Source: a virus
Lineage: Duplodnaviria > Caudoviricetes
Reading direction: 5' to 3' (one strand)
Virus record (IMG/VR): IMGVR_UViG_3300003937_000325
DNA length: 64,000 bases
Shown: positions 12,622 through 51,859 of the stretch, in pieces
Layout: each line of letters opens with the position of its first letter
Numbering within the stretch: the first letter of the stretch is position 1
Notes under the pieces: model-generated
What the model saw: only the letters and a program-made list of their open reading frames with translations
Database searches by the model: none
What the model was told of the DNA's origin: nothing
Program-made: the position numbers and the translations under genes

Positions 12622-13083
12622 TTAAATATTTATAATCACGAAATCTTTTGATGAAAATGTACCACTAACAATTGTATAGTCAATTCTTAACTTTGCAGTA
12701 TACTCAACCGCACTATCACTAGCTACTCTAAAAATTTGACCACCTAACTCATCATAGTTTATTTCACCAGGTAAAGGTTCCGCCTCTACATAAGGTTCTA
12801 TTGTAATATCATTTATTTGTAAATTAGGTATATACTTATCTACAGCTTGTCGGACATCGGCTTTTATAGCATCGAATGTTGGTCCATCCATTGGTTCAAA
12901 AATAAACTCATAAATACGAGTTCCAAAATCAGGTAAATAATATCTACTTCCTTTCCTAGTTAATATTAAATGTAGTAAATCTGCCCTAATCTCCTCATCA
13001 GTTGATTGAGTCAATCTAAGGTAGTCCCCTTGTAAACTATCCCTGAATGGAAAGAATACACCGTATGTTTTACCGTTCGCCAT
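12622..13083 (-). CDS. Baseplate wedge protein gp25-like (GPW/gp25 family)
   Basis: IRADLLHLILTRKGSRYYLPDFGTRIYEFIFEP...YIPNLQINDITI is the canonical gp25 pattern. Confidence 0.92.
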   Translation of the reverse strand: MANGKTYGVFFPFRDSLQGDYLRLTQSTDEEIRADLLHLILTRKGSRYYLPDFGTRIYEFIFEPMDGPTFDAIKADVRQAVDKYIPNLQINDITIEPYVEAEPLPGEINYDELGGQIFRVASDSAVEYTAKLRIDYTIVSGTFSSKDFVIINI

Positions 13084-13127
13084 ATTTCATAAATATAAAC
13101 ACAGATTATTTTATCTAAATATAAAAG

Positions 13128-13152
13128 AAAAAAGGTTAGACGAATCTAACCT
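13128..13152 (-). terminator. Intrinsic terminator after nrdA
   Basis: Minus strand: AGGTTAGA-TTCG-TCTAACCT followed by a T run. UUCG tetraloop. Confidence 0.85.
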
Positions 13153-13181
13153 TTTCACATAAAATACTATTATTTTATTCC

Positions 13182-14888
13182 TTAACCTTCACATGCAACA
13201 CATTGTAAATCATTTAGATTTAACTTTTTCCTTGCAAATGCCTGTGCCGAATTCATAGAATGTTGGTAATATAAAGTTTTAACCCCCAACTTCCACGAGT
13301 CAATAAGTAATTTATTAACATCTTTAGTCGGCATCTCAGGTGATACCATTAAGTTTAGAGACTGTGATTGGTCAATAAAATCTTGTCTAATTGCCGCCTG
13401 ATTAATAATCGATGATTGGTTAATCTCAGCAAAAGTTCTAAAGACATCTTTTTGTTCGTCACTTAGGAAGTCTAAGTGTTGTACTGACCCATCAGCCTTT
13501 TTTATACTATCCCAAGTCTCTTTATTATCTCGACCCATAGTGTCTAATAATTCTTTCAACACTGGATTTTTTATAGTTACCTTCATCTTAGCAACATCCT
13601 TAACATAACAGTTAGACCAAATTGGTTCAATAGATTGTGATACCTGACCAAGAATAAATGCTGATGACGTAGTCGGAGCGACCGCATTAAGTGTTACGTT
13701 TCTTCTACCATAACCTTTTAGATATTCAGGTTCCCCAAATATTTCAGCTAACTCCTCGGATGCTTTATATGATTTATCTTTAATAGTTTTAAACACCTCA
13801 ACGTTAAGTTTAGCGGTTTCTCTGGTATCAAAAGCCAACCCTTTTGATTGTAATAATGAGTGCCAACCTAAAACACCTAAACCAAGAGCTCTTTGTCTTT
13901 TAGCGAAGTTATAAGCTTTTTCCATATAAAGAAACGCCATTTTACCTTCTCTAGTACCATTGTCTCTTAATTCCTCTAATTTATTACAATATTCAGTAAC
14001 TACTGCGTCTAAGAAATAAACCATAGTTTCAACAGCATCGGTATCTTTCCACTCATCGTAGTGTAACACATTCATTGAAGATAATACACAAACGAATGAT
14101 TCATCTTCAGAGTTATGTAGAGCTATCTCAGAACAAAGATTAGAGTTATAAATTTTAGCCCCTTTATCTTGGTAAACTTTAGGTGCATTATTATTCATCG
14201 TGTCATGAAACATAATATATGGGTAACCAATTTCACCTCTTCTTTGGATTACTTTTGCCCATATTTTTCTTTTCTCATCGTCACCTGCAATCATTTCTTC
14301 CATAAATTTATCAGTCACTGTAACTGCGTGTGTTAAATCTTGGATTGAAGCCCCTTCTGTACCAATCTCTAAGAACTCCATAATATCTGGATGTTCAACG
14401 GGTAAGTAAGGTGAGAAACGACCTCTTCTTGTCGCCCCTTGTGAAATATTATCAACAACACTCTGAAATAAGTTCATGAAGTGAACCGCACCAGGAGCAT
14501 GTCCATTGTCAGTTATCTTAGCTCCACGACCTCTAATGTTACCGAAGTACCCTGAGGTACCACCACCCATTTTACTCATTTCTCCAACTTCAGCTTGAGT
14601 AAATAATATTGATTCTATGTTATCGCTAACATTAGAACCAAAACAACTTACAGGTAAACCTCTAACTTTACCAAAATTTGCCCATACAGGTGATGATAAC
14701 GAATACCATCCTTTACTCATATAGTCGTAAAATTTTTCAGCAAACCCTTCTTTACCTAAAAGTTTTTCTGCATGTTGTGCAATTGTTTTTATTCTATCTA
14801 AAGGTTCTTCACCTTCACTTAAATAACCTCTACGAAGAAACGTTATTGATTCTTCATTAATCCAATTAAAAGGTTTTCTATTTTTCAT
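13182..14888 (-). CDS. nrdA: Ribonucleotide reductase class Ia large subunit, without an ATP-cone
   Basis: VSCF, SNLCSEI (N-C-E catalytic triad), FVCVL, LYYQH tyrosine pair and C-terminal CVACEG. The short N-terminus lacks an ATP-cone. Confidence 0.95.
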   Translation of the reverse strand: MKNRKPFNWINEESITFLRRGYLSEGEEPLDRIKTIAQHAEKLLGKEGFAEKFYDYMSKGWYSLSSPVWANFGKVRGLPVSCFGSNVSDNIESILFTQAEVGEMSKMGGGTSGYFGNIRGRGAKITDNGHAPGAVHFMNLFQSVVDNISQGATRRGRFSPYLPVEHPDIMEFLEIGTEGASIQDLTHAVTVTDKFMEEMIAGDDEKRKIWAKVIQRRGEIGYPYIMFHDTMNNNAPKVYQDKGAKIYNSNLCSEIALHNSEDESFVCVLSSMNVLHYDEWKDTDAVETMVYFLDAVVTEYCNKLEELRDNGTREGKMAFLYMEKAYNFAKRQRALGLGVLGWHSLLQSKGLAFDTRETAKLNVEVFKTIKDKSYKASEELAEIFGEPEYLKGYGRRNVTLNAVAPTTSSAFILGQVSQSIEPIWSNCYVKDVAKMKVTIKNPVLKELLDTMGRDNKETWDSIKKADGSVQHLDFLSDEQKDVFRTFAEINQSSIINQAAIRQDFIDQSQSLNLMVSPEMPTKDVNKLLIDSWKLGVKTLYYQHSMNSAQAFARKKLNLNDLQCVACEG

Positions 14889-14918
14889 ATTATTGTTTTA
14901 TTATTGTTTTGTTTCTTT

Positions 14919-16199
14919 TTAAAATAAGTCGTTTGACGTTATTGATTTTTGTTTCTTACTATAGTTAATACTTCTTTTATTGAAAAAATCAGTATGTTTG
15001 GTCGTTAAAATCTCATCATCAAACCACTCTGTAGTTTCTAATAATGTATCATTAGTTTCGAATATACTGTCAACACCTATAGAATTCAAAGATACATTAA
15101 ATCTATATTTAATGAACTCCATTGTTTGTTTTTTAGTTAAGAAATCTAAATCACCTTTTTCAAAAATCCAATTAACCACTTCAGTCTCAGCCTCGTAAGC
15201 CTCTTTAGTTGCAATAATTAAATCTTCAACTAACTGAGGTGTCCACCATTCAGGGTTTTCTTTTTTAATTAAATTAACTAACTCAAACCCAAATTCAGCA
15301 TGAATATTTTCTTCTTTAGATGTCGCCTCAACCGCGTTACTAATACCCTTTAATTTGTTTTTATGTTTATTAAATGACATAATAACTAAAAATTGTGAGA
15401 ATAACGAAACGTTTTCAACAAACATCGAGAATAAAACTATAGACTCAAAATACTCTTTATCGTCAACTGATTTTGAATTTGAAATCGCTTTCTCTAAATA
15501 TTTAATTCTCCTTCTCACTTGTGGTACTTCTAATAAATTTTCAAATTCATTATTAAGACCTAATAGTTGTATTAAGTGTGAATATGCGTCTGCGTGTCTT
15601 ACTTCCGATTCCGCAAATGTCGCACCGACATTACCAATTTCAGGTTTTGGCATCCTCTTATAAATGTCACCCCAAAATGATTTAACTGCAACTTCAATTT
15701 GTGAAATTGCTAACATCGCTCTTTCAACTGCCGATTTTTCTTTTTCGTTTAAATGTACTTTGTAATCTTGGATATCTGACGTATAATTAAATTCAGTGTG
15801 TACCCAGTATGAATGTCTAATTGCGTCAACATACTCATTTAAATTAGGGTATTCGTAAGGTTTAAGATTAATTCTTTTTGAAAAGATGTTAGGTTGGTTC
15901 TTAGAACGATAAATAATGTATTCTTTGGCAACGTCATTTAAACCGTTATCCATTAACTTATTTTCAACCATATCATGAATTTCATCTACGTTAGGAATTC
16001 TTTCTTTATTACCTCTGAAAAGTCCTTTTGTTGTGAGTCTAGCAATTTTTTCAGCCATACCCTCATCAACTTTATCAATACTTTTCATGGCATTTAAAAT
16101 AGCCATTTCAATCTTTTCAGATTTAAAAACTACTTTATCTCCACTTCTCTTTATTACGTAACGAATGTCTTTTGAGACACTATCTATTAGATTGTCCAT
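14919..16199 (-). CDS. nrdB: Ribonucleotide reductase small (beta) subunit with an N-terminal ATP-cone
   Basis: Di-metal motifs (ESEVRH, VEN, KEENIH) and C-terminal DFF..RSINY. aa ~12-100 (VIKRSG...FKSEKIEMAI...VDEIHDMVENKL...VAKEYIIYR) form an ATP-cone. Confidence 0.95.
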   Translation of the reverse strand: MDNLIDSVSKDIRYVIKRSGDKVVFKSEKIEMAILNAMKSIDKVDEGMAEKIARLTTKGLFRGNKERIPNVDEIHDMVENKLMDNGLNDVAKEYIIYRSKNQPNIFSKRINLKPYEYPNLNEYVDAIRHSYWVHTEFNYTSDIQDYKVHLNEKEKSAVERAMLAISQIEVAVKSFWGDIYKRMPKPEIGNVGATFAESEVRHADAYSHLIQLLGLNNEFENLLEVPQVRRRIKYLEKAISNSKSVDDKEYFESIVLFSMFVENVSLFSQFLVIMSFNKHKNKLKGISNAVEATSKEENIHAEFGFELVNLIKKENPEWWTPQLVEDLIIATKEAYEAETEVVNWIFEKGDLDFLTKKQTMEFIKYRFNVSLNSIGVDSIFETNDTLLETTEWFDDEILTTKHTDFFNKRSINYSKKQKSITSNDLF

Positions 16200-16221: not shown

Positions 16222-17601
16222 TTATAATTTATTTTCCCTTTGTTTTCTTTTTTGTAGAAGTTCTTGAATACGTACTTTGTTCTTTTCTTCTTTTTGTTCT
16301 TCCATTCCTAAGAATGTTACACTACTGTCCGTATCAATTTCTATCATTTCGTTATCGAATTTACAATTTTCAAATACAATTCCATCTTTACCAATTCTTG
16401 ATTTAGTAATAGCAATTGTTGCTAAATTCATTTCTTTCTGTTGTAGGGATTTAGCAACAGAAATAATAACGTGACCTACTTGAGCTTTCTTAATTGAACC
16501 ACCCATTTGGTCCGTAGTAACTACTTCAGAAGATATTGACGAACGGTTACCTTGAGTGGCCGTCCATCCTGCTATATCTAATTCATGACACATAGATTCA
16601 AACCCTCTCATAACCGAACCTTCACTTTTCCATTCGTCCCCTAAATTTTTATCGGGAACGATACAATCAATATAATCAACTACAACTAAATCTATTTTAG
16701 TACCTTCCGCTATCATTTTACGTATCTGATTTTTTATTTGATTCATCGTTAACGTATCGGATGGTAACTTCTTTAGAACTAATCGATTAGATGCATTTTC
16801 TTTAATTTGTCTAACTTTTTCTAAAACTTCTTCCCTTTGTAGTGACAAATTATCAGGTGCAATTTTTGTCCACATAGTGAAATGTTTTCTTTGTATAATC
16901 TTAGGGTTGTCTTCGAAAAATATTTGTAAAACATTATAACCTAAGTTAAATGCGTTATTAGCTATTTTACTAAGTACTGTAGTTTTACCCACACCTGTCG
17001 GAGCTAAAATAACTCCAATTTCACCCTTCGCTAACCCACCTTTTAGTAGATTATCTATACCTGTTATTCCCATCGGAATCGGATGTCTAAAGTCATCATC
17101 CAAAACCTCATCTAAATTAAAAAAAACATCTGCAGTTCCCGTATCAACTTCTCCAACTTGTAAAGCTTCTCTTACCATTTCTTCTAAATGGTCATAAGAT
17201 TCAAAATCACCTTTATCGATAATCTTCTGTGCTTTAGTCATTACCTTCTGTAATTCTTGTTGTTTACAGAACTTTAACGCCTTTTCTTGAACGTATTGGT
17301 ATCCATCATCAGGTGCATCTACTACTTGAGTAATCATATCTAAGACCATTTTTTGGGCCATAGGTGACGTAACTTCTGATTTTGTAATTTGTTCAAGTGT
17401 TGAGAACGAAGGAGCGTGTTCGTACTTGTGATAATACTCCTTGGTCATCTGCATGATTAACTTAAAATATTGATTGTCAAAGTACTTAGGTTCCAACACA
17501 TCTACAATAGAACTTGCAAAATCCTTATGAAGGATAATATTGTTAAGTATTTGTAGTTGAAATGTATTACCGAGGTAACCAAAATTCTTTTCTTTTGACA
17601 T
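16222..17601 (-). CDS. dnaB: Replicative DNA helicase (DnaB / T4 gp41-like, SF4)
   Basis: Walker A APTGVGKTT, Walker B VVVDYID, WTATQGNR, and a KSR arginine finger. Confidence 0.92.
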   Translation of the reverse strand: MSKEKNFGYLGNTFQLQILNNIILHKDFASSIVDVLEPKYFDNQYFKLIMQMTKEYYHKYEHAPSFSTLEQITKSEVTSPMAQKMVLDMITQVVDAPDDGYQYVQEKALKFCKQQELQKVMTKAQKIIDKGDFESYDHLEEMVREALQVGEVDTGTADVFFNLDEVLDDDFRHPIPMGITGIDNLLKGGLAKGEIGVILAPTGVGKTTVLSKIANNAFNLGYNVLQIFFEDNPKIIQRKHFTMWTKIAPDNLSLQREEVLEKVRQIKENASNRLVLKKLPSDTLTMNQIKNQIRKMIAEGTKIDLVVVDYIDCIVPDKNLGDEWKSEGSVMRGFESMCHELDIAGWTATQGNRSSISSEVVTTDQMGGSIKKAQVGHVIISVAKSLQQKEMNLATIAITKSRIGKDGIVFENCKFDNEMIEIDTDSSVTFLGMEEQKEEKNKVRIQELLQKRKQRENKL

Positions 17602-17632
17602 ATTTTTTTGAGTTTTAATCTGTGTTTGTAAA

Positions 17633-18097
17633 TTATAAATATGGGTGAATTAGTGAATGCTCCATGTACTTGTAAGTTAAATTTTCACTTGAGAAAGTGT
17701 CAGTTAACTCGCGAAGTAACTTTTTTAGGTGTGGGCGTACATCCACAGTGTATCTAGTCTTAGGTGGGTATAATTTAGCGTCCCAAATTCTATGACAAAT
17801 TGTCTCATCTCCTATCTTAAGATAGATGTTAAAATACTCATCTCCTTCAGTATTTGATGTTTCTAAAATTTCAGGATTGACCATAATTTGACCCATATTT
17901 TCTGAAAGGTAGTTAGATGATTTGATTTTCAAATCTTCTTGGATTACTTCAGCAGCATTTCTGATTACCTCATAAAGTTCAACACTCCCTCTCGCCTTAG
18001 GATTGTACCCACGAACATTAAAGTACCTCTGTACAACAAAGTTGTTGTTTAGAGTCATTAAGAACTCTAATTTGGTTGTTTCTGTTTTTTCTTTCAT
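17633..18097 (-). CDS. Hypothetical protein (154 aa) in the replication cluster
   Basis: ATGA overlap with the exonuclease gene. No motif recognised. Confidence 0.8.
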   Translation of the reverse strand: MKEKTETTKLEFLMTLNNNFVVQRYFNVRGYNPKARGSVELYEVIRNAAEVIQEDLKIKSSNYLSENMGQIMVNPEILETSNTEGDEYFNIYLKIGDETICHRIWDAKLYPPKTRYTVDVRPHLKKLLRELTDTFSSENLTYKYMEHSLIHPYL

Positions 18098-19110
18098 ATT
18101 AAACGTTTTTTAGTTTTAAATCTTCTTTTTTCTTTTCTTGTTAATTTCATAAAAGGGGTTAAAAATTCAACCCACGCGTTGTCATGTTTTGGTAGATACT
18201 TAAAAATTCCATCTTTCATCATCATTCTCATTAAGTTTTTATAACCTCTACCATCAGGGTCTAAATTTTCTGTATGGTACTGTTTAATTATTTCTTTTGA
18301 GTCTTCAGTTAATAATGGTTGAGACAAATCTACGAGTTTTTTATTTATTATAAAAAATTCTTCACCATAAATTCCTCTTTTAGTTTTACCTGAGAGTAAA
18401 TTTTGTAATGCTCGATTGTCTTTATCATTTTTATGTAGCTCCTCCGCACGTTTTAAAATATCATCAATAGTTACGACACTATCAACTATTTCGGGAAATA
18501 ACTTAACAAATGTTTTTTCTCCCATATAACGGATACCGTCAATATTATCGGATTTATCTCCCGATATAATCTTAAATGTTGATATGTTTTGGTGAGGGAT
18601 AGATATATCCTTTAAAGGGACTAAATCTCCATTTTTAAGGGTTATTCTCTTCATCGGTTGGTACACCTCCACTTTGTCCGATATAAGTTGTGTAAGGTCT
18701 TTATCTGAAGAATATATAGTCTTATACTCGTTTTCAGATATTTGACAGTAATAAGCAATTAAATCATCACTTTCAGTATTTTTAACAGAAACTTGTCTGA
18801 TAAACATTTCTTCAAGATAAGCTTTAACTTGTTGTACTTGCCACTCAAATGATTCTTTTTTAGCCTCATTTAAAGTTTGCTTACGATTACCCTTATAGTC
18901 TGGTGAAATAAGTTTTCTTTGGGATGAGTTATTCTCCCCATCCCAAAACACAATTACTTTATCATGATTGTGTTCATTAAGAAACTTTTTGATTGTATTG
19001 ACAAAATGATAGATACCTCCAATATGTTTACCCCCATGATAGAAATCTCTAACTCCATGAAAACCTATTTTAAATAAATTATTTCCGTCAATTAATAATG
19101 TTTTAACCAC
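18094..19110 (-). CDS. 5'-3' exonuclease / flap endonuclease (T4 RNase H, Pol I N-terminal-like)
   Basis: LLIDGNN, FWDG, YKGNR, ESDDLIA, SSDKDLTQL, GDKSDNIDG..GEKT (H3TH motif). Confidence 0.93.
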   Translation of the reverse strand: MVKTLLIDGNNLFKIGFHGVRDFYHGGKHIGGIYHFVNTIKKFLNEHNHDKVIVFWDGENNSSQRKLISPDYKGNRKQTLNEAKKESFEWQVQQVKAYLEEMFIRQVSVKNTESDDLIAYYCQISENEYKTIYSSDKDLTQLISDKVEVYQPMKRITLKNGDLVPLKDISIPHQNISTFKIISGDKSDNIDGIRYMGEKTFVKLFPEIVDSVVTIDDILKRAEELHKNDKDNRALQNLLSGKTKRGIYGEEFFIINKKLVDLSQPLLTEDSKEIIKQYHTENLDPDGRGYKNLMRMMMKDGIFKYLPKHDNAWVEFLTPFMKLTRKEKRRFKTKKRLI

Positions 19111-19128
19111 TTTTTATGCGTTAAATTG

Positions 19129-20133
19129 TTACACTTCCTGTTTTTCTTCTTCTAACTTAAAGTCACCTTCTACTCCAATGACTTCTTTCCAATACTCAGA
19201 TTGTTCACCTTTGTATTTTTCAATTGATTTTTTTTCTTCACTACTTTCCTTACCTGCTAAGAATCCGTGTGGGGTTACAATTATTTTCCCATCAGCATAT
19301 CCTAATCCATTAATGTGATTTTTCATTACTGATATTTTTGTTCTTGAAGCGAACTTTACTTTTCTTTTGTTCTTAACCGCAGATATAGTTGTTGTCCCAG
19401 CATTTTTTTGATTACCAAATAAAAACACCAAAGACGAGTTTAACCATATTGATTCTCCACCTTTAGCCTTAATTTTGGGTTGACCAAATGGTGAGTCAGG
19501 TAAAGCCACCCACGGTTGATTAACTATTAGTAAAGTATTTTCATACTTAGAATCTGCCTTACGTGAACCCGATATCCTTTGGTTGATACCCATACCTATT
19601 TTATCCGCTAATGTGGATGCATTATGTTGTTTACCTCCTTTACCATCAAAAGTCATCTTACATGGTACCGAACCTACTGAATCCCATAAGAAAAGTAAAT
19701 CATACTCTAATTCACCCTTATTTTGTGCATCCAATAATTCATTGATGTAGTCAGTTATTTGCTCAATATAATTAAAATTATTATTAAAAATAAAGAACCC
19801 GTCCCAATCTAATTCACCCGTTTCTTCATCCACAACTTCTTCACATTCAAACCCCATTAACTTAGCGTGTTCAAATGACCATTTTTGTTCGGTAATTATA
19901 AACACAGGTAAAATACCTTTTTTTTGTGCGTCAACCGCCGCCTTTACTAAAGCTGTTGTTTTACCCGTATCTGAATGACCTAAAAACATATTTAAATGAC
20001 CAATTGCGGGGCCAGGTAATCCAACCGCGTCTAAGAAATCTTCACCCAAATCTAAAAACCTTTGTGGTTTGTATTTTGCAGATGTAGAAAATTTCTTCTT
20101 TATACTACTAAAATCTTTTTTCTTTATTGCCAT
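19129..20133 (-). CDS. recA: RecA/UvsX-like recombinase
   Basis: Walker A GHSDTGKTT, Walker B LFLWDSVGS, INQ-like VNQ, KAKGG, and KNH near the C-terminus. Confidence 0.88.
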   Translation of the reverse strand: MAIKKKDFSSIKKKFSTSAKYKPQRFLDLGEDFLDAVGLPGPAIGHLNMFLGHSDTGKTTALVKAAVDAQKKGILPVFIITEQKWSFEHAKLMGFECEEVVDEETGELDWDGFFIFNNNFNYIEQITDYINELLDAQNKGELEYDLLFLWDSVGSVPCKMTFDGKGGKQHNASTLADKIGMGINQRISGSRKADSKYENTLLIVNQPWVALPDSPFGQPKIKAKGGESIWLNSSLVFLFGNQKNAGTTTISAVKNKRKVKFASRTKISVMKNHINGLGYADGKIIVTPHGFLAGKESSEEKKSIEKYKGEQSEYWKEVIGVEGDFKLEEEKQEV

Positions 20134-20151
20134 ATTTTTTAATTTGATAAA

Positions 20152-20181
20152 GGTGGTAACGACATCACTGTCGTCACCACC
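20152..20181 (-). terminator. Strong hairpin between the SSB and RecA genes (attenuator or terminator-like)
   Basis: Minus strand: GGTGGTGACGAC-AGTGAT-GTCGTTACCACC (12 bp, one G-U pair), followed only by TTTAT. Confidence 0.6.
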
Positions 20182-20197
20182 ATCATGTTAGTTGTTA

Positions 20198-21058
20198 TTA
20201 AAATGGTAAGTCTGTGTCCACACCCATTTTTGATTGTGGGTCAGTTGTTTCCTCAGTTTTAGTCGATTCGTTTGAACCACCTAACACTACTTCAGAAGAG
20301 TCGTCACCATAAACATATTTCTTTAAGTCAGAACTCCAAACAGGTGTCTCACCTCTTGCAATCGCCTCTAAGTACTCCACAGGTTTCTGTGCGTAAACAT
20401 CTTGCCATGTTAACTCATTAGTCATCCACTCATCCATTTGAGACTTTTCTGAGTGTATCGGACATGGGTCGTCATACATAACTGTCTGTACAACAGTGTA
20501 CTCAATACCTTTAGGTGTTTTAGCCTTTGATAATTCAACCATTAAATCACGTCCTTCATTCGCGTCGGTAACATCTCCCTTAGCTTTCCATATTGGAATG
20601 ATTTTATCTAAGATACCTTCTTGTTTGTAGTTATCTTTAAATCTCCAAAATTTAGGTCCGTGGTCTTCATTATCTCTATCAATAAGTTTTACAATATAGA
20701 ATTTACGTGGACGGTATTGTCTCGCCAAATCCTTGTCAGATTCCTTACCTGTTGAGATTAGTTCTTCGTAAACCTCTGTAAGAGGTGAACGTTCTCCGTC
20801 ATTCTTTCCTGGGTCATATAGTTTTGTCCATTTACCATCAATCTGTACTTCGTGGTACCACACTTCTTTAAAAGGTGATGACCCGTCAGGTGTTGGTAAG
20901 ATACGCACTCTTTTTTGTCCCGAACTTGTACCTTTTGGTAAATAAGTCGTGAAATAACGTTTTAGTCTATCTTCTTGAGAGATAGATTGTTTTCCATTGT
21001 TTGATTTTGAAGTATTCTTCTCGTACTGAGCTAATACTGCGTCTAATGCATTTGCCAT
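20198..21058 (-). CDS. Single-stranded DNA-binding protein (T4 gp32-like)
   Basis: RVRILP...PFKEVWYH, YIVKLIDR...PKFWRF, GRDL, acidic tail ending DTDLPF. Located next to the recombinase. Confidence 0.85.
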   Translation of the reverse strand: MANALDAVLAQYEKNTSKSNNGKQSISQEDRLKRYFTTYLPKGTSSGQKRVRILPTPDGSSPFKEVWYHEVQIDGKWTKLYDPGKNDGERSPLTEVYEELISTGKESDKDLARQYRPRKFYIVKLIDRDNEDHGPKFWRFKDNYKQEGILDKIIPIWKAKGDVTDANEGRDLMVELSKAKTPKGIEYTVVQTVMYDDPCPIHSEKSQMDEWMTNELTWQDVYAQKPVEYLEAIARGETPVWSSDLKKYVYGDDSSEVVLGGSNESTKTEETTDPQSKMGVDTDLPF

Positions 21059-21107
21059 AATTTTTCTTTTTTCTCTGTTATTATTTATTTATCGTTTACT
21101 CAATTAT

Positions 21108-21135
21108 AATATAACAAAGAAAGTCATTAAGTCAA
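21108..21135 (-). promoter_or_regulatory. sigma70-like promoter for the SSB-RecA-exonuclease-helicase-RNR operon
   Basis: TTGACT-16 nt-TATATT immediately downstream of the upstream terminator. Confidence 0.65.
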
Positions 21136-21137
21136 AT

Positions 21138-21161
21138 AAAAAAAGACCATCGAAATGGTCT
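21138..21161 (-). terminator. Intrinsic terminator
   Basis: Minus strand: AGACCAT-TTCG-ATGGTCT followed by a T run. Confidence 0.85.
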
Positions 21162-21194
21162 TTTAGTGTTTTTATAAAAATTATATAAGGGGTG

Positions 21195-46001: not shown

Positions 46002-47564
46002 ATGAAGTTCAAAAGATTAATAAATAAAATCTCAACGATTGAACATAAAATTAATAGCCGAGAAAAGTTAACAGAAGTTAACGTTAATATCTCGCACACT
46101 CCCAAACAAATTTTAACAGAAATGAAAAAAATTGGTATAGAAACATTACCGTACTCTTATTCTGCCTTAGAGAGATTTATAGATTCAGAAACTATGGATA
46201 CTCACTATAACAAACATTATAAAGGATACGTTAAGAAATTAAATAATGCATTGTCGAGTAGAGTTGACGGTAACATTGAATTAGAACAATTAATAAGAGG
46301 TATTTCACGATACAATAAAACAATTAGAGACAATGCGGGCGGAGCATTTAACCACGCACTTTTTTGGAAAATAATGTCACCCAAAAAACAAAGAGCTCAA
46401 GGTGAAATTTATGACAAAATAATTAAGGATTTTGGTAATTTTCCTAAATTCAAAAAAATATTTAGTAATGAGGCAATAAAAAACTTTGGTTCAGGATGGA
46501 CTTGGTTAGTCTTAACTAAGAATGGTAAATTAAAAATAATGTCCACCCCAAATCAAGACAACCCATTAATGAATGTGGTTAAAAATGGTGGATACCCATT
46601 ATTGTGTTTAGATACATGGGAACATGCTTATTACTTGAAATACCGTAATAAGAGAGATGAATATGTTAGAAATTTTTGGACAATAATCAATTGGGATTAT
46701 GTTAATGAATTATATTTAAATCAAACATCAAAAAAACTAACTGAAACGAAGATAGTTAAAAGTATTATTTCTGAAGGTGCGAGTGCAGGATGTAATAGAA
46801 ATCAAGTACAGACGTACCGCAGATTATTTAATACTAATCCTGAGATAAAAAAACGTTTTATGTATACGATAATGGATATACTAAAAGAAGTATTTTCAGA
46901 ATATTGGTATGAAAAAAACAAATACTCTAAAGGTCAAATGTCAGGGATTTATGATTATGAACAAAAAGGTCGCTCAGTGATTAATAAGTTAAATACCAAC
47001 TACACAGCTTTTTGTACATTAGTGAGTGACACAAATAAATATTTAAGAAAATATGGTATTGATGCAATTAATTTTAATGATAAAAATCACAAACAACAAC
47101 TAACTGAAGTTGATAGACTTAACAAATATTTGATAGAATTAAGGTACTCTATTTTTAACGCAGATTCACCAACGTTTAAAACTCTAATGTCTGGTTTAGA
47201 TAAAACAAATAAGTTTGGAGATAAAAGAGAGGTTGACGCTGTTGTAAGTTTAAAAAAAATATTTAACACTTCTGATGTCAAAAAAGTTGGGGAACTAGGT
47301 GACGTAGATGATATGATTAAAGGTATAGACGCAGTCGTCACATTACCTGAAGGTACTAAAACAATACAAATTAAACCATTTAATCGTATTAATAAAAAAG
47401 ACGGTAAAGTTATTGTTTACGGTACAGGAAACGTTAAACCCTATAAAACGGATTATTTAGTTTTTCATAGTGATAAGTTAGGAACTGAAGTTTTTGAGAA
47501 TAAAAATACTAAAATAGTTAACGGAAGATACGTTTTTAACGAGTCATCACAATATATTAATTAA
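46002..47564 (+). CDS. sodA: Fe/Mn superoxide dismutase (Mn-type signature) fused to a C-terminal PD-(D/E)XK-like domain
   Basis: LPYSYSALE, HYNKH, NAGGAFNH, FGSGW, PNQD and DTWEHAYY. Then about 270 extra aa containing E...GID...IQIK. Confidence 0.9.
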   Translation: MKFKRLINKISTIEHKINSREKLTEVNVNISHTPKQILTEMKKIGIETLPYSYSALERFIDSETMDTHYNKHYKGYVKKLNNALSSRVDGNIELEQLIRGISRYNKTIRDNAGGAFNHALFWKIMSPKKQRAQGEIYDKIIKDFGNFPKFKKIFSNEAIKNFGSGWTWLVLTKNGKLKIMSTPNQDNPLMNVVKNGGYPLLCLDTWEHAYYLKYRNKRDEYVRNFWTIINWDYVNELYLNQTSKKLTETKIVKSIISEGASAGCNRNQVQTYRRLFNTNPEIKKRFMYTIMDILKEVFSEYWYEKNKYSKGQMSGIYDYEQKGRSVINKLNTNYTAFCTLVSDTNKYLRKYGIDAINFNDKNHKQQLTEVDRLNKYLIELRYSIFNADSPTFKTLMSGLDKTNKFGDKREVDAVVSLKKIFNTSDVKKVGELGDVDDMIKGIDAVVTLPEGTKTIQIKPFNRINKKDGKVIVYGTGNVKPYKTDYLVFHSDKLGTEVFENKNTKIVNGRYVFNESSQYIN

Positions 47565-48720: not shown

Positions 48721-49059
48721 ATGGGAATTATAAAAACACGACCGATTAAAAAAATTATTAATGGTAAAGAAACTATTTTTTCTGAAACTATTATGGTAAT
48801 TAATATGCCTTTTTATAAGACAAATGGTGAGAGCGCTATTGTGGTTAAAAATAGTAATTCAGAATGTGTCATTTTATTAGATGAAACCACCACAGAACAT
48901 ATTACCGTAAAATCTATGTCAGACTCTATAGTAAAAACAGACAAACTAATCGATGAACAATATGAAGAAATTAGACTCGAAAAGTTTGCCTCTGTTGAAC
49001 TAAGATATATAAATAACTACTGGTACGTTATGTCTTCTGATGGTCTAAAGAATTCATAA
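48721..49059 (+). CDS. Hypothetical small beta-rich protein (112 aa)
   Basis: Follows the neck gene after 2 nt. Its 3' end overlaps the convergent polymerase gene by 32 nt. Confidence 0.75.
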   Translation: MGIIKTRPIKKIINGKETIFSETIMVINMPFYKTNGESAIVVKNSNSECVILLDETTTEHITVKSMSDSIVKTDKLIDEQYEEIRLEKFASVELRYINNYWYVMSSDGLKNS

Positions 49060-51859
49060 TATTCATATTTTTATTAACGTATTCCATATCCACTAATTTA
49101 GTTGTATTCTCAAGATACATGTAATATGGGTTTATGTTAACGTCATCCCAAAACCTAATTTCGGGGTCAGATAATGTTAATACTTCATCTAAATTATCCT
49201 GACTACCTTCTTTCATGGGGAATCCTCTAACCAACTTAGTTTGTGATTTAGTAAAAAACGGTCTATCATCTGGATTATCCACTAATATTTCACTACGAAT
49301 TTCAGGAGAAAACACTACCAACAAAGGTTCAATACGTTTATTAAATGCTGCCATATAACGAGGAATATTGTATTCACCTAATTTGTCAGGTGTTTCACTA
49401 ATATATTTATCATCAATTAAATAACAATTCAATACGATTTCTGTAGAATCTGGAGGCATTGGCTTACCATTATTTATTGCATATTCTCTCTTTTCTGCCG
49501 CAGTTGCATTCCACTTATTCTTTTTTTGAACATCACCGTGAGATTTTCGTTCACCATTATTGACATAATAGATAGTATCACCTAATCCCACATTTAAGTT
49601 ATGTTTTATAGCTAATTCCATATGTGCCTGTCGAGACATTAAAGACCCTGATTTGGTTCGTTTTTTTACGTGTAATTTATAATCACTTATACTTTGTTTA
49701 ACACGAGATTTATTGGCGATTTTAGAAATCGGTATCTCCAAGTTATAAATTTTATTTACATACTCATAATAAAAGTCTAAAAACTCATGACCTTTACCGT
49801 CCAATAATAGACGTAACCCTTGGTCCAAAAACTCTGCGACATACGTTTGAAGCTTTTTAGATTTAATACTATTACCTGTTAATTTAACCTTACCTGTATC
49901 AGTGAGTAGTGCGTAGTTTTTACGTGCAACATTTATAGTAGACGGCCATACACCGTCAGTATCTAACCCCATTTCACCTCTCATGAAAATATCATTATAC
50001 TCCGCTACGTCCGCCTCAGTACCAATATACTCTTTACCTTCTTCAACCAACCCGTTTAATCCTTTACCGATATATGTGTGTTTTTCACGTTCAGGTGGAG
50101 ATGAAAAGTTTACACCATCCGTATCCATCACTAATGGTTTGTAACCTCTCTTCATAAACCACATTATCATTTGTCTAAGATATTGTCTACCCGTACAGGT
50201 AATTTGTTCTCCCATATCCATATCACCCCACGGAAATACGTGTGGAGCGGATAATGACCCGAAAAATGCGTTAATGAATATTTTAATTGGTAATTGTTTA
50301 CGATTATACTTTTTAGATTGTTCTGGGTCTGAAACGTATAAATCTGAAGCCAATTTTTTATAAGTGATACGAGTATCTCTAAAATACTTTAACATACTCT
50401 TCATGGCTCCCGTTACATCACATTTAGGGAAGATATCATGAACTAACTGTATCGATGGGTATAGTGATGAGTAATCGAGTTTTAAAACGTCTGTAGAGTA
50501 CCCTACTGCCATCAATCTTGACAATCCACCTGTAAATGGTCGTTTTTCACCTTTCTTAGGAATTGCTAAGTTATGTTTATATGACCAAGCGGCCATAATC
50601 ATTTTCCATAATGTTGCGGTACCCATTGTTGATAGCCTCTCATATGTGGTAGGTACTAATTTAGATAGAAGGAAGTTTGCTTGATTAAACTCCTCGTCTA
50701 CAACCATAGTCTCCCATATATCATCATAGAGATACCTTTCAATAATGTAGTTCCCATTTACCTTTTCATAGTGTCCTGGAAATCTTTCCATTAGGTTTTC
50801 AGTACCTATTGAACCAACTTCTTTGTAACCACCTGTCTTTGGGTTGAAATAATAATCTTTGTTGTCAAAATAAATTTTACCAATTTTATCTCCTTCAACA
50901 TAAACACGGTTTTCTTTTTCCGCCCCAATAAATTGAGTTATGTATTTAAGACCCCAACTTTTAATGTCTGAGTTAATTGCTTGTGTTCTTCTAACTGCAT
51001 GTGCGATATCAATGATATTGTAACCCCACATCATTGTTTGAGTGTATGGTTCCATTTCATTCGCTAACTTCAACATACCCTCCTTCTGTCTTAACTTTTG
51101 TTTGGGATTTAATGTTTTAGATATTTTTTTGACATCTAACCCTAATATTTCCGCTCTACGAAGAATAAAAGGAAAATCGAAAAAGGCTGAGTTATAACCA
51201 CCAATCAAGGTCGGTTTTATACTTGCGATTGTATCAAAAAATTCAATAATAACTTTACGTTCCTCTTCATCGTTTTCACAAGCGATAACCTTTTCGAAAC
51301 CTTTATTATCTTTCATCCCTATAAGGAATATTTTACTATCCTCAGGAGATAGTCCTGTAGTCTCAATATCAAATACAAAACGATGTACCTCATCGTATTC
51401 ATCGAAACCTTTAAAAAGTCTTTTATTTTTTTGTATTAAATATTGTTCGGCAGGTGCTAGAATCATTATGTAGTCTGAATTACCACGACCCCATGGGTCT
51501 AATCCACCACCTTTAAAAAAGTTTACTAAATTACTATATGATTTAGTTGTCTTAACTAAATACTTTAAACCCTGTTCCATTCGGGTATCATTATGAGTAT
51601 CTAATGTCTCAATAATTATTCCATGTGTAGACATAGCTTGTTTTTGAGCTGCCTTAGAACCGCCATAAAAGTTGAGTCCTTGTAGGTTACCTACCCATGC
51701 AAATGGAATAAATGTGTCTGATTTTATTGATTTACCCTGTATTGGGTCTTGAATTACTTTGAATATTTTTCCTGACGCGTAATCATATTCTAACGCTACA
51801 ATATATTTTTCAGGGTCCTCTCCATTGAGGAACGTTTCAATTTGTTCTTGTGATACCAT
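49028..51859 (-). CDS. polB: Family B DNA polymerase with a proofreading exonuclease
   Basis: ExoI DIETTG, ExoII GYNSAFFD, ExoIII YLYDD; motif A DYSSLYPS, motif B KIFINAFFG, motif C DTDG. Confidence 0.96.
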   Translation of the reverse strand: MVSQEQIETFLNGEDPEKYIVALEYDYASGKIFKVIQDPIQGKSIKSDTFIPFAWVGNLQGLNFYGGSKAAQKQAMSTHGIIIETLDTHNDTRMEQGLKYLVKTTKSYSNLVNFFKGGGLDPWGRGNSDYIMILAPAEQYLIQKNKRLFKGFDEYDEVHRFVFDIETTGLSPEDSKIFLIGMKDNKGFEKVIACENDEEERKVIIEFFDTIASIKPTLIGGYNSAFFDFPFILRRAEILGLDVKKISKTLNPKQKLRQKEGMLKLANEMEPYTQTMMWGYNIIDIAHAVRRTQAINSDIKSWGLKYITQFIGAEKENRVYVEGDKIGKIYFDNKDYYFNPKTGGYKEVGSIGTENLMERFPGHYEKVNGNYIIERYLYDDIWETMVVDEEFNQANFLLSKLVPTTYERLSTMGTATLWKMIMAAWSYKHNLAIPKKGEKRPFTGGLSRLMAVGYSTDVLKLDYSSLYPSIQLVHDIFPKCDVTGAMKSMLKYFRDTRITYKKLASDLYVSDPEQSKKYNRKQLPIKIFINAFFGSLSAPHVFPWGDMDMGEQITCTGRQYLRQMIMWFMKRGYKPLVMDTDGVNFSSPPEREKHTYIGKGLNGLVEEGKEYIGTEADVAEYNDIFMRGEMGLDTDGVWPSTINVARKNYALLTDTGKVKLTGNSIKSKKLQTYVAEFLDQGLRLLLDGKGHEFLDFYYEYVNKIYNLEIPISKIANKSRVKQSISDYKLHVKKRTKSGSLMSRQAHMELAIKHNLNVGLGDTIYYVNNGERKSHGDVQKKNKWNATAAEKREYAINNGKPMPPDSTEIVLNCYLIDDKYISETPDKLGEYNIPRYMAAFNKRIEPLLVVFSPEIRSEILVDNPDDRPFFTKSQTKLVRGFPMKEGSQDNLDEVLTLSDPEIRFWDDVNINPYYMYLENTTKLVDMEYVNKNMNIMNSLDHQKT

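Follow-up and report, generated by a model that had tools for sequence, protein, structure and literature searches.

Does a viral ribonucleotide reductase (RNR) keep an overall on/off switch, and does the position of that switch on the enzyme tell us where the genes came from? This question is raised by a 64,000-nucleotide (nt) stretch of IMG/VR virus record IMGVR_UViG_3300003937_000325 (Duplodnaviria; Caudoviricetes), referred to here as the window, in which nrdB and nrdA, the genes for the two subunits of an RNR, lie next to each other. Our answer to the first part is that this operon very probably encodes a class Id aerobic RNR whose overall-activity sensor sits on NrdB, with a dATP off-switch that would act through tetramers like that of the bacterium Leeuwenhoekiella blandensis. 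This reading is carried by what we observe at the locus—the domain architecture, the subclass membership, intact catalytic, metal-binding and cone motifs, the fold, and conservation across a phage clade. The elements in question, with lengths in amino acids (aa), are as follows.

14919..16199, minus strand: nrdB, assigned as the class Id beta (radical-generating) subunit, 426 aa, comprising ATP-cone, core and C-terminal tail (open reading frame (ORF), Pfam, 5OLK match, AlphaFold2 model)
15897..16160, minus strand: ATP-cone of NrdB, residues 14-101, a beta-hairpin with K17-R18 and then four helices (PF03477 and model)
15051..15875, minus strand: metal-binding core of NrdB, residues 109-383 (Ribonuc_red_sm, E 1.4e-59)
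14922..15005, minus strand: C-terminal tail of NrdB, residues 399-426, ending in NDLF, presumed to serve NrdA binding and radical transfer
14889..14918, minus strand: spacer between nrdB and nrdA, 30 nt, A-rich
13182..14888, minus strand: nrdA, assigned as the class Id alpha (catalytic) subunit, 568 aa, without an ATP-cone (TIGR02510, 6DQX/6DQW matches, motifs)

The domain architecture is clear. In Pfam, residues 14-101 of NrdB match the ATP-cone family PF03477 (E 2.1e-18; 67.1 bits against a cut-off of 25.8) over profile positions 2-86 of 88, and residues 109-383 match Ribonuc_red_sm. NrdA gives only Ribonuc_red_lgN and the barrel domain in Pfam, with no PF03477 match; it scores 753.7 bits against the NCBIfam model TIGR02510 'NrdE-prime' (cut-off 602.25), and because that match begins at the fifth residue there is no space for a cone. 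The initial annotation, made from the sequence alone, had described a class I RNR built like that of L. blandensis, with its cone on NrdB and none on NrdA, and the profile search that it proposed bears this out: the N-terminus of NrdB scores as an ATP-cone, far above the cut-off. Both ORFs are as it gave them, 14919..16199 (minus, 426 aa) and 13182..14888 (minus, 568 aa), and its placement of the cone, at about 15900..16166, falls within ~6 nt of the Pfam envelope.

By sequence, both subunits belong to class Id (NrdAi/NrdBi). The best match of NrdB in the PDB is L. blandensis NrdB itself (5OLK, E 8e-158, over residues 9-426), followed by the cone-less L. blandensis constructs 6SF4/6SF5 and then by the class Id beta subunits of A. 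actinomycetemcomitans and F. johnsoniae (6SF4 2e-141, 8DQ3 4e-112, 6CWO 5e-97); class Ic, Ia and Ib proteins appear at 1e-23 or weaker. For NrdA, two class Id alpha subunits head the PDB matches, 6DQX from A. ureae (E 5e-200) and 6DQW from F. johnsoniae. An AlphaFold2 model of NrdB, built from a 30-sequence alignment (A2) and having a mean predicted local distance difference test (pLDDT) score of 87.3, superposes on 5OLK with template modelling (TM) scores of 0.80/0.86 over 394 columns at 58% identity. Its core fits the Mn-loaded structure 6SF5 with a TM score of 0.99 and a root-mean-square deviation of 0.9 A, and fold TM scores range from 0.94 to 0.99. Helix B of the model is interrupted at residues 172-175, around K173—a break around a lysine in this helix is a hallmark of class Id (PMC6754362).

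The residues expected of a working enzyme are in place. Mapped through the 5OLK alignment, all six metal ligands of NrdB are present—E169, E199, H202, E262, E297 and H300, corresponding to Glu170, Glu200, His203, Glu263, Glu298 and His301 of L. blandensis—and K173, W176, Y206 and T293 correspond to Lys174, Trp177, Tyr207 and Thr294. The ligands, K173, W176 (the tryptophan conserved in the subclass) and Y206 are invariant in alignment A2, and T293 is nearly so; Y206 as the Tyr at the radical position and T293 as the conserved Thr that keeps this Tyr off the metal are identified by alignment rather than by side-chain geometry. NrdA, aligned with 6DQX, keeps its catalytic cysteines, Asn/Glu pair, tyrosine dyad and C-terminal cysteine pair, in the form of C82 (VSCFGS), N250/C252/E254 (SNLCSEI), C267, Y540-Y541 and C563/C566. 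The NrdB tail (residues 399-426) is disordered in the model, with pLDDT ~41, as are the equivalent residues 399-427 in 5OLK; it is the best-conserved segment in the phage clade, with 96% mean identity among 120 representatives, and its Y413 does not vary in either alignment A1 or alignment A2.

The likeliest mechanism is a dATP off-switch acting through NrdB tetramers, as published for L. blandensis (PMC5794259, PMC8350387, PMC6754362); from that analogy we infer the metal identity, nucleotide binding, tetramer formation and dATP inhibition of the phage enzyme. NrdA would reduce ribonucleoside diphosphates and would have a specificity site only, with no overall-activity site. NrdB would most likely carry a dimanganese centre, Mn2(IV,III) after oxidation, in place of a tyrosyl radical, and its N-terminal ATP-cone would be the overall on/off sensor. 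With ATP in the cone, NrdB would stay an active dimer, by analogy with L. blandensis; with dATP, the cones of two NrdB dimers would pair through helices 3 and 4, and the resulting inactive tetramer would cap the output of deoxyribonucleoside triphosphates (dNTPs).

Such a switch depends on an intact cone, and in the model the cone is well formed, with strands at residues 14-16 and 22-24, helices at 27-40, 46-60, 71-84 and 88-100, and pLDDT of 78-94. The cone residues compared here are those named in the text of three papers; the full list of nucleotide contacts in 5OLK is given there as a figure only. Among them, the hairpin pair K17-R18 and the aromatic helix-4 motif Y94/Y97, whose roles in cones have been described (PMC9110341, PMC11226230), are both present and essentially invariant in the phage clade, here taken as 120 cluster representatives, each at least 83% identical. 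In L. blandensis, the cone-cone interface of the dATP tetramer is formed by Asp73, Met80, Lys89, Ile92, Ile93 and Arg95 on helices 3 and 4; these correspond to D76, M83, K92, I95, I96 and R98 of the phage protein, all invariant or conservatively replaced in the clade. The numbering of one further residue is ambiguous, such that the 'Asp76' of the paper maps either to E79, which is conserved, or to N80, which is changed. The initial annotation had named degenerate nucleotide-binding residues as grounds for doubting the switch; the named motif residues are kept, and the cone is not degenerate.

Could this cone nevertheless be a vestige, inherited with the gene and no longer regulating, so that the enzyme runs at full rate during infection, the behavior assumed for many phage RNRs? 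Within the clade the cone does change more quickly than the core, with mean identities of 82% and 91%, it has lost the equivalent of Arg102 in L. blandensis, and many related phage NrdB proteins have no cone at all. However, the 120 representatives show little or no variation at K17, R18, K29, A33, D76, M77-M83, A91, K92, Y94, I95, Y97 and R98, and the same goes for nearly all positions of helices 3 and 4; the persistence of these residues in a domain that otherwise diverges faster indicates, as far as conservation can, that the cone has stayed functional and is no relic. The high Pfam score and the confident fold also speak against decay, and the cone is kept, in a full-length NrdB, in all 120 best homologues and at all 80 best IMG/VR loci, with no cone-less or truncated variant among them. 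We therefore regard a vestigial cone as very improbable.

A different doubt is whether a working cone must work as it does in L. blandensis, and several features could weigh against a close functional match. The cone is only ~42% identical to that of L. blandensis (counted on the 5OLK alignment), and helix 4 with the linker after it lacks four residues, so that Arg102 has no counterpart. This deletion follows the motif YRSK; at this point the window protein reads N101-Q102, and in some clade members an Arg or Lys follows one position later. Position 75 is His where L. blandensis, Flavobacteriaceae and Candidate Phyla Radiation (CPR) bacteria have Gln, N80 replaces an Asp of the L. blandensis cone, and S19 replaces another, giving KRS instead of KRD. 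On the side of the reductant, no thioredoxin or glutaredoxin partner was found in the window, in a weak test using tblastn with two Mammaliicoccus-phage thioredoxin-domain queries.

Together, some of these features mark out a group. The four-residue deletion, which makes the last helix one turn shorter, His for Gln and the sequence VEN are shared, in the family alignment, by the window clade, Salicola phage SCTP-2 and seven metagenomic proteins that represent clusters at 50% identity (P0124, P0128, P0129, P0131, P0135, P0137 and P0141)—all of which pass the Pfam ATP-cone model. The phage clade may have an uncharacterised, perhaps mainly viral, subtype of beta-subunit cone that could sense nucleotides differently from L. 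blandensis; we give this a small chance. The differences could lie in stoichiometry, in weaker discrimination between dATP and ATP, or in another inactive oligomer, and, if real, would suit a phage that needs a high dNTP output. The corresponding explanation of the locus—a cone that functions but binds nucleotides with a different stoichiometry or selectivity, such as a single nucleotide or poor discrimination between ATP and dATP, or that forms an inactive oligomer other than beta4—seems to us unlikely. In its favor, the discovery paper states that no protein residue other than Arg102 contacts the gamma-phosphates of the two dATP molecules in 5OLK, and helix 4 of the phage model stops at residue 100; a quick tree also unites the short-helix-4 members, at 95 by the Shimodaira-Hasegawa-like approximate likelihood ratio test. 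Against it, the careful tree does not resolve that grouping, and the K-R pair, the helix-4 aromatics and the interface residues of helices 3 and 4 are all kept. Moreover, the same paper reports that dADP also binds and inhibits L. blandensis NrdB, so the gamma-phosphate contact made by Arg102 is not essential. The L. blandensis-like off-switch thus remains our preferred reading, with the short-helix-4 subtype as the remaining point of note.

The second part of the question concerns origin, since the initial annotation took the cone on NrdB as a hint of a Bacteroidota-related donor or host. The donor half of this proposal is not supported, and the host half is plausible on independent grounds only. 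If the operon had been captured recently from a Bacteroidota host, it would mark that donor or host, and such an origin might seem natural given that cone-bearing NrdB occurs in 60 of 301 sampled Flavobacteriaceae genomes and that the phage may well infect Bacteroidota. However, NrdB is no closer to Flavobacteriaceae (57-61% identity) than to CPR bacteria (up to 62%, in a Paceibacterota genome) or to Thiotrichales and relatives (54-58%); all bacterial groups lie at 53-62%. In NrdB trees built with FastTree and with quick and careful IQ-TREE runs, the phage clade falls outside a well-supported Bacteroidota clade paired with Thiotrichales, a grouping whose support to the exclusion of the phage is 99/96 and 98/93 in the careful tree, and NrdA gives the same picture. 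When phage and Bacteroidota are constrained to a single clade, approximately unbiased (AU) tests reject the tree, with p 0.018 for NrdB and 0.038 for NrdA—a moderate rejection under LG+G4, the model used for the donor trees and AU tests alike (the 64-row set was read as a quick tree only). Finally, four isolated Bacteroidota phages that we checked, Flavobacterium immuto, Chryseobacterium MA9V-2, Maribacter Colly and Cellulophaga phi17:2, have cone-less NrdB proteins of 30-39% identity. Recent capture from a Bacteroidota donor is thus disfavored by the identities, the trees of both subunits and the AU tests, and we hold it to be highly improbable.

A Bacteroidota host is made plausible by evidence of another kind. 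A Shine-Dalgarno-like motif (GGAG, GAGG or AGGA within 20 nt upstream) precedes only 1 of 40 ORFs of at least 120 aa, and the leaders are A/T-rich; rarity of this motif is typical of Bacteroidota. The best isolated-phage matches of the tail sheath include Flavobacterium phage immuto, which also has the same gene order, recombinase-exonuclease-DnaB-nrdB-nrdA, at 27-41% identity. The RNR may have been inherited vertically, with loss of the cone in immuto, or may have been replaced in place in the phage lineage; in this virus it is an unreliable marker of host or donor.

How unusual is the arrangement? The initial annotation considered a cone on NrdB notable for a phage, and this does not hold: viruses with the arrangement were already listed in the 2018 discovery paper. 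Among isolated phages, matches that cover 80% or more of the NrdB query occur in 89 records, nearly all of them Staphylococcus and Mammaliicoccus Twortvirinae, along with Sporosarcina phage Lietuvens and Salicola phage SCTP-2; a few of the 89 are cone-less Rhizobium phages, at 83% coverage. Pfam confirms the cone on the NrdB of four isolated phages from different hosts. A tblastn search of phages with the cone alone finds NrdD and NrdA cones and, among NrdB proteins, only that of SCTP-2; the cone-only query does not reach the more diverged cones of Staphylococcus phages, which Pfam confirmed instead. In IMG/VR, at least 585 viral stretches encode a relative, the best 80 of which are full length at 79-100% identity.

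In bacteria, species-representative genomes yield 200 confirmed relatives. Of the best 80, almost every one is full length, with one match starting only at residue 68; their sources are CPR phyla, Polaribacter, Crocinitomix, Thiotrichales, Erysipelothrix and one planctomycete. This genome scan was pattern-based and missed L. blandensis itself; it was complemented by the sample of 301 Flavobacteriaceae genomes, where, beside the cone-bearing NrdBi counted above, cone-less NrdBi occurs in 14/301. The order nrdB before nrdA, to which the initial annotation also drew attention, is present here but is not special—it is the norm of the subclass, seen in 79 of 79 bacterial loci showing both genes and likewise in the phage loci with the complete pair, and beta-alpha gene order has been associated with beta-subunit cones (PMC9669993).

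Other arrangements turned up among the metagenomic proteins. P0144, from an 85-kb contig outside the window, has 1019 aa, with an ATP-cone at 11-101, an NrdB domain at 116-386, and NrdA N-terminal and barrel domains from residue 465; it is a cone-beta-alpha fused class Id-like RNR in a single chain. P0159 (464 aa) and P0165 (447 aa) are NrdBi-like, with N-terminal extensions of 130-145 residues that match neither the Pfam ATP-cone nor another family.

The locus is accordingly an intact, conserved class Id RNR from a new phage lineage, with its sensor on NrdB and a design that is ordinary in phages and bacteria. It matters little as a discovery, as that design is already described and common: the architecture, the mechanism in one bacterium, the presence in viruses and the link to beta-alpha gene order are all published. 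Its interest is that an abundant lineage of uncultured marine giant phages keeps an overall-activity sensor domain on its RNR; the presence of the cone throughout the closest homologues and best IMG/VR loci argues against the view that phage RNRs generally dispense with dATP feedback.

The surroundings of the operon are those of a phage. The window has ~32% G+C, belongs to a genome of ~300 kb, and encodes baseplate wedge proteins, a 1064-aa tail sheath, DnaB, a UvsX-like recombinase, a gp32-like single-stranded DNA-binding protein (SSB) and a B-family DNA polymerase (PHROGs and Pfam); the source is an uncultured, abundant marine giant phage of myovirus type. Another IMG/VR fragment (G001) encodes an NrdB identical to that of the window. 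From pattern scans, nrdB and nrdA appear to close an 8-kb replication and recombination unit that runs from SSB through the recombinase, a 5'-3' exonuclease, a 154-aa ORF and DnaB to nrdB and nrdA. The end of dnaB lies 22 nt from the start of nrdB, which is upstream of nrdA on the same strand, and a pattern scan of the 30-nt spacer between the two found no terminator-like site; we infer that they are co-transcribed. The remaining elements of the unit are listed below.

21141-21164 and 21108-21135, minus strand: terminator-like site and promoter-like site, respectively, upstream of the SSB gene (pattern scan)
16222..21164, minus strand: upstream genes of the apparent unit, encoding the gp32-like SSB, RecA/UvsX-like recombinase, 5'-3' exonuclease, 154-aa ORF and DnaB helicase (PHROGs, Pfam)
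13129..13156, minus strand: terminator-like hairpin with a 12-bp stem and a T run, 26 nt past the nrdA stop codon (pattern scan and sequence)

The hairpin at 13129..13156 is the probable end of the replication/RNR transcription unit. On the minus strand at 13070-13128, between this hairpin and the baseplate gene (12622-13083), are two TATATTTA-type boxes. Elsewhere in the window, the B-family DNA polymerase (49028-51859, minus strand) has no close relative among isolated phages; its best matches there are in phages of Salinibacter (24% identity) and of Nostoc/Anabaena (24-26%). A 520-aa protein that has both Fe/Mn superoxide dismutase domains is encoded at 46002-47564 on the plus strand. Assembly with superoxide has been proposed for the cofactor of class Id NrdB (PMC6754362); that the dismutase of the window could influence RNR activation is pure speculation.

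Several known systems can be set beside this RNR. Among isolated phages, the Staphylococcus/Mammaliicoccus Twortvirinae (Romulus/Remus, SA11, Stau2, MSShimriz1), Sporosarcina phage Lietuvens and Salicola phage SCTP-2 have the same domain order, with Pfam ATP-cones at E 1e-15 to 1e-22, and the same nrdB-nrdA order within a replication block; their NrdB proteins are 48-52% and their NrdA proteins 58-64% identical to those of the window. They differ in lineage and host (Bacillota, Salicola): the Bacillota phages have a long, L. blandensis-like helix 4 with Arg and branch with Erysipelothrix, whereas SCTP-2 has the short helix 4. In many Staphylococcus Twortvirinae (for example L085), nrdA is split into 2-4 pieces by HNH or GIY-YIG homing-endonuclease inserts; the nrdA of the window is uninterrupted.

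The cone-less class Id RNRs, including those of F. johnsoniae and A. ureae (6CWO/6CWP/6CWQ, 6DQW, 6DQX) and the NrdB proteins of Bacteroidota phages, share the subclass, the minimal NrdA and the Mn-type NrdB core; however, they have no ATP-cone, presumably no overall-activity control, and NrdB proteins only 30-43% identical. Facklamia ignava NrdB (PMC6187632) is likewise a class Id protein with an N-terminal ATP-cone and a Mn2(IV,III) cofactor; it has an extra glutaredoxin domain before the cone, whereas the window NrdB begins 13 residues before its cone and has no such domain. Further afield, the cones of P. aeruginosa NrdA (5IM3) and Prevotella copri NrdD (8P23) are of the same type by sequence (E 1e-4 and 5e-7, with a cone-only query) and share the K-R hairpin and the YI.YR motif of helix 4; they bind two dATP molecules tail to tail and self-associate through their C-terminal helices. 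These cones sit on catalytic subunits, of class Ia and class III, and have basic residues after the YR motif that the phage cone lacks.

The closest counterpart is the NrdBi/NrdAi pair of L. blandensis (5OLK, 6SF4/6SF5; PMC5794259, PMC6754362, PMC8350387). That gene is bacterial and the phage gene branches outside Flavobacteriaceae, and the phage cone stands apart through its short helix 4, the missing Arg102, His75, Asn80 and KRS. The two systems are nonetheless alike in the cone on NrdB, a cone-less NrdA of ~570 aa, the order nrdB-nrdA, the metal ligands, the equivalents of Lys174/Trp177/Tyr207/Thr294 and the interface residues of the cone, at 58% identity.

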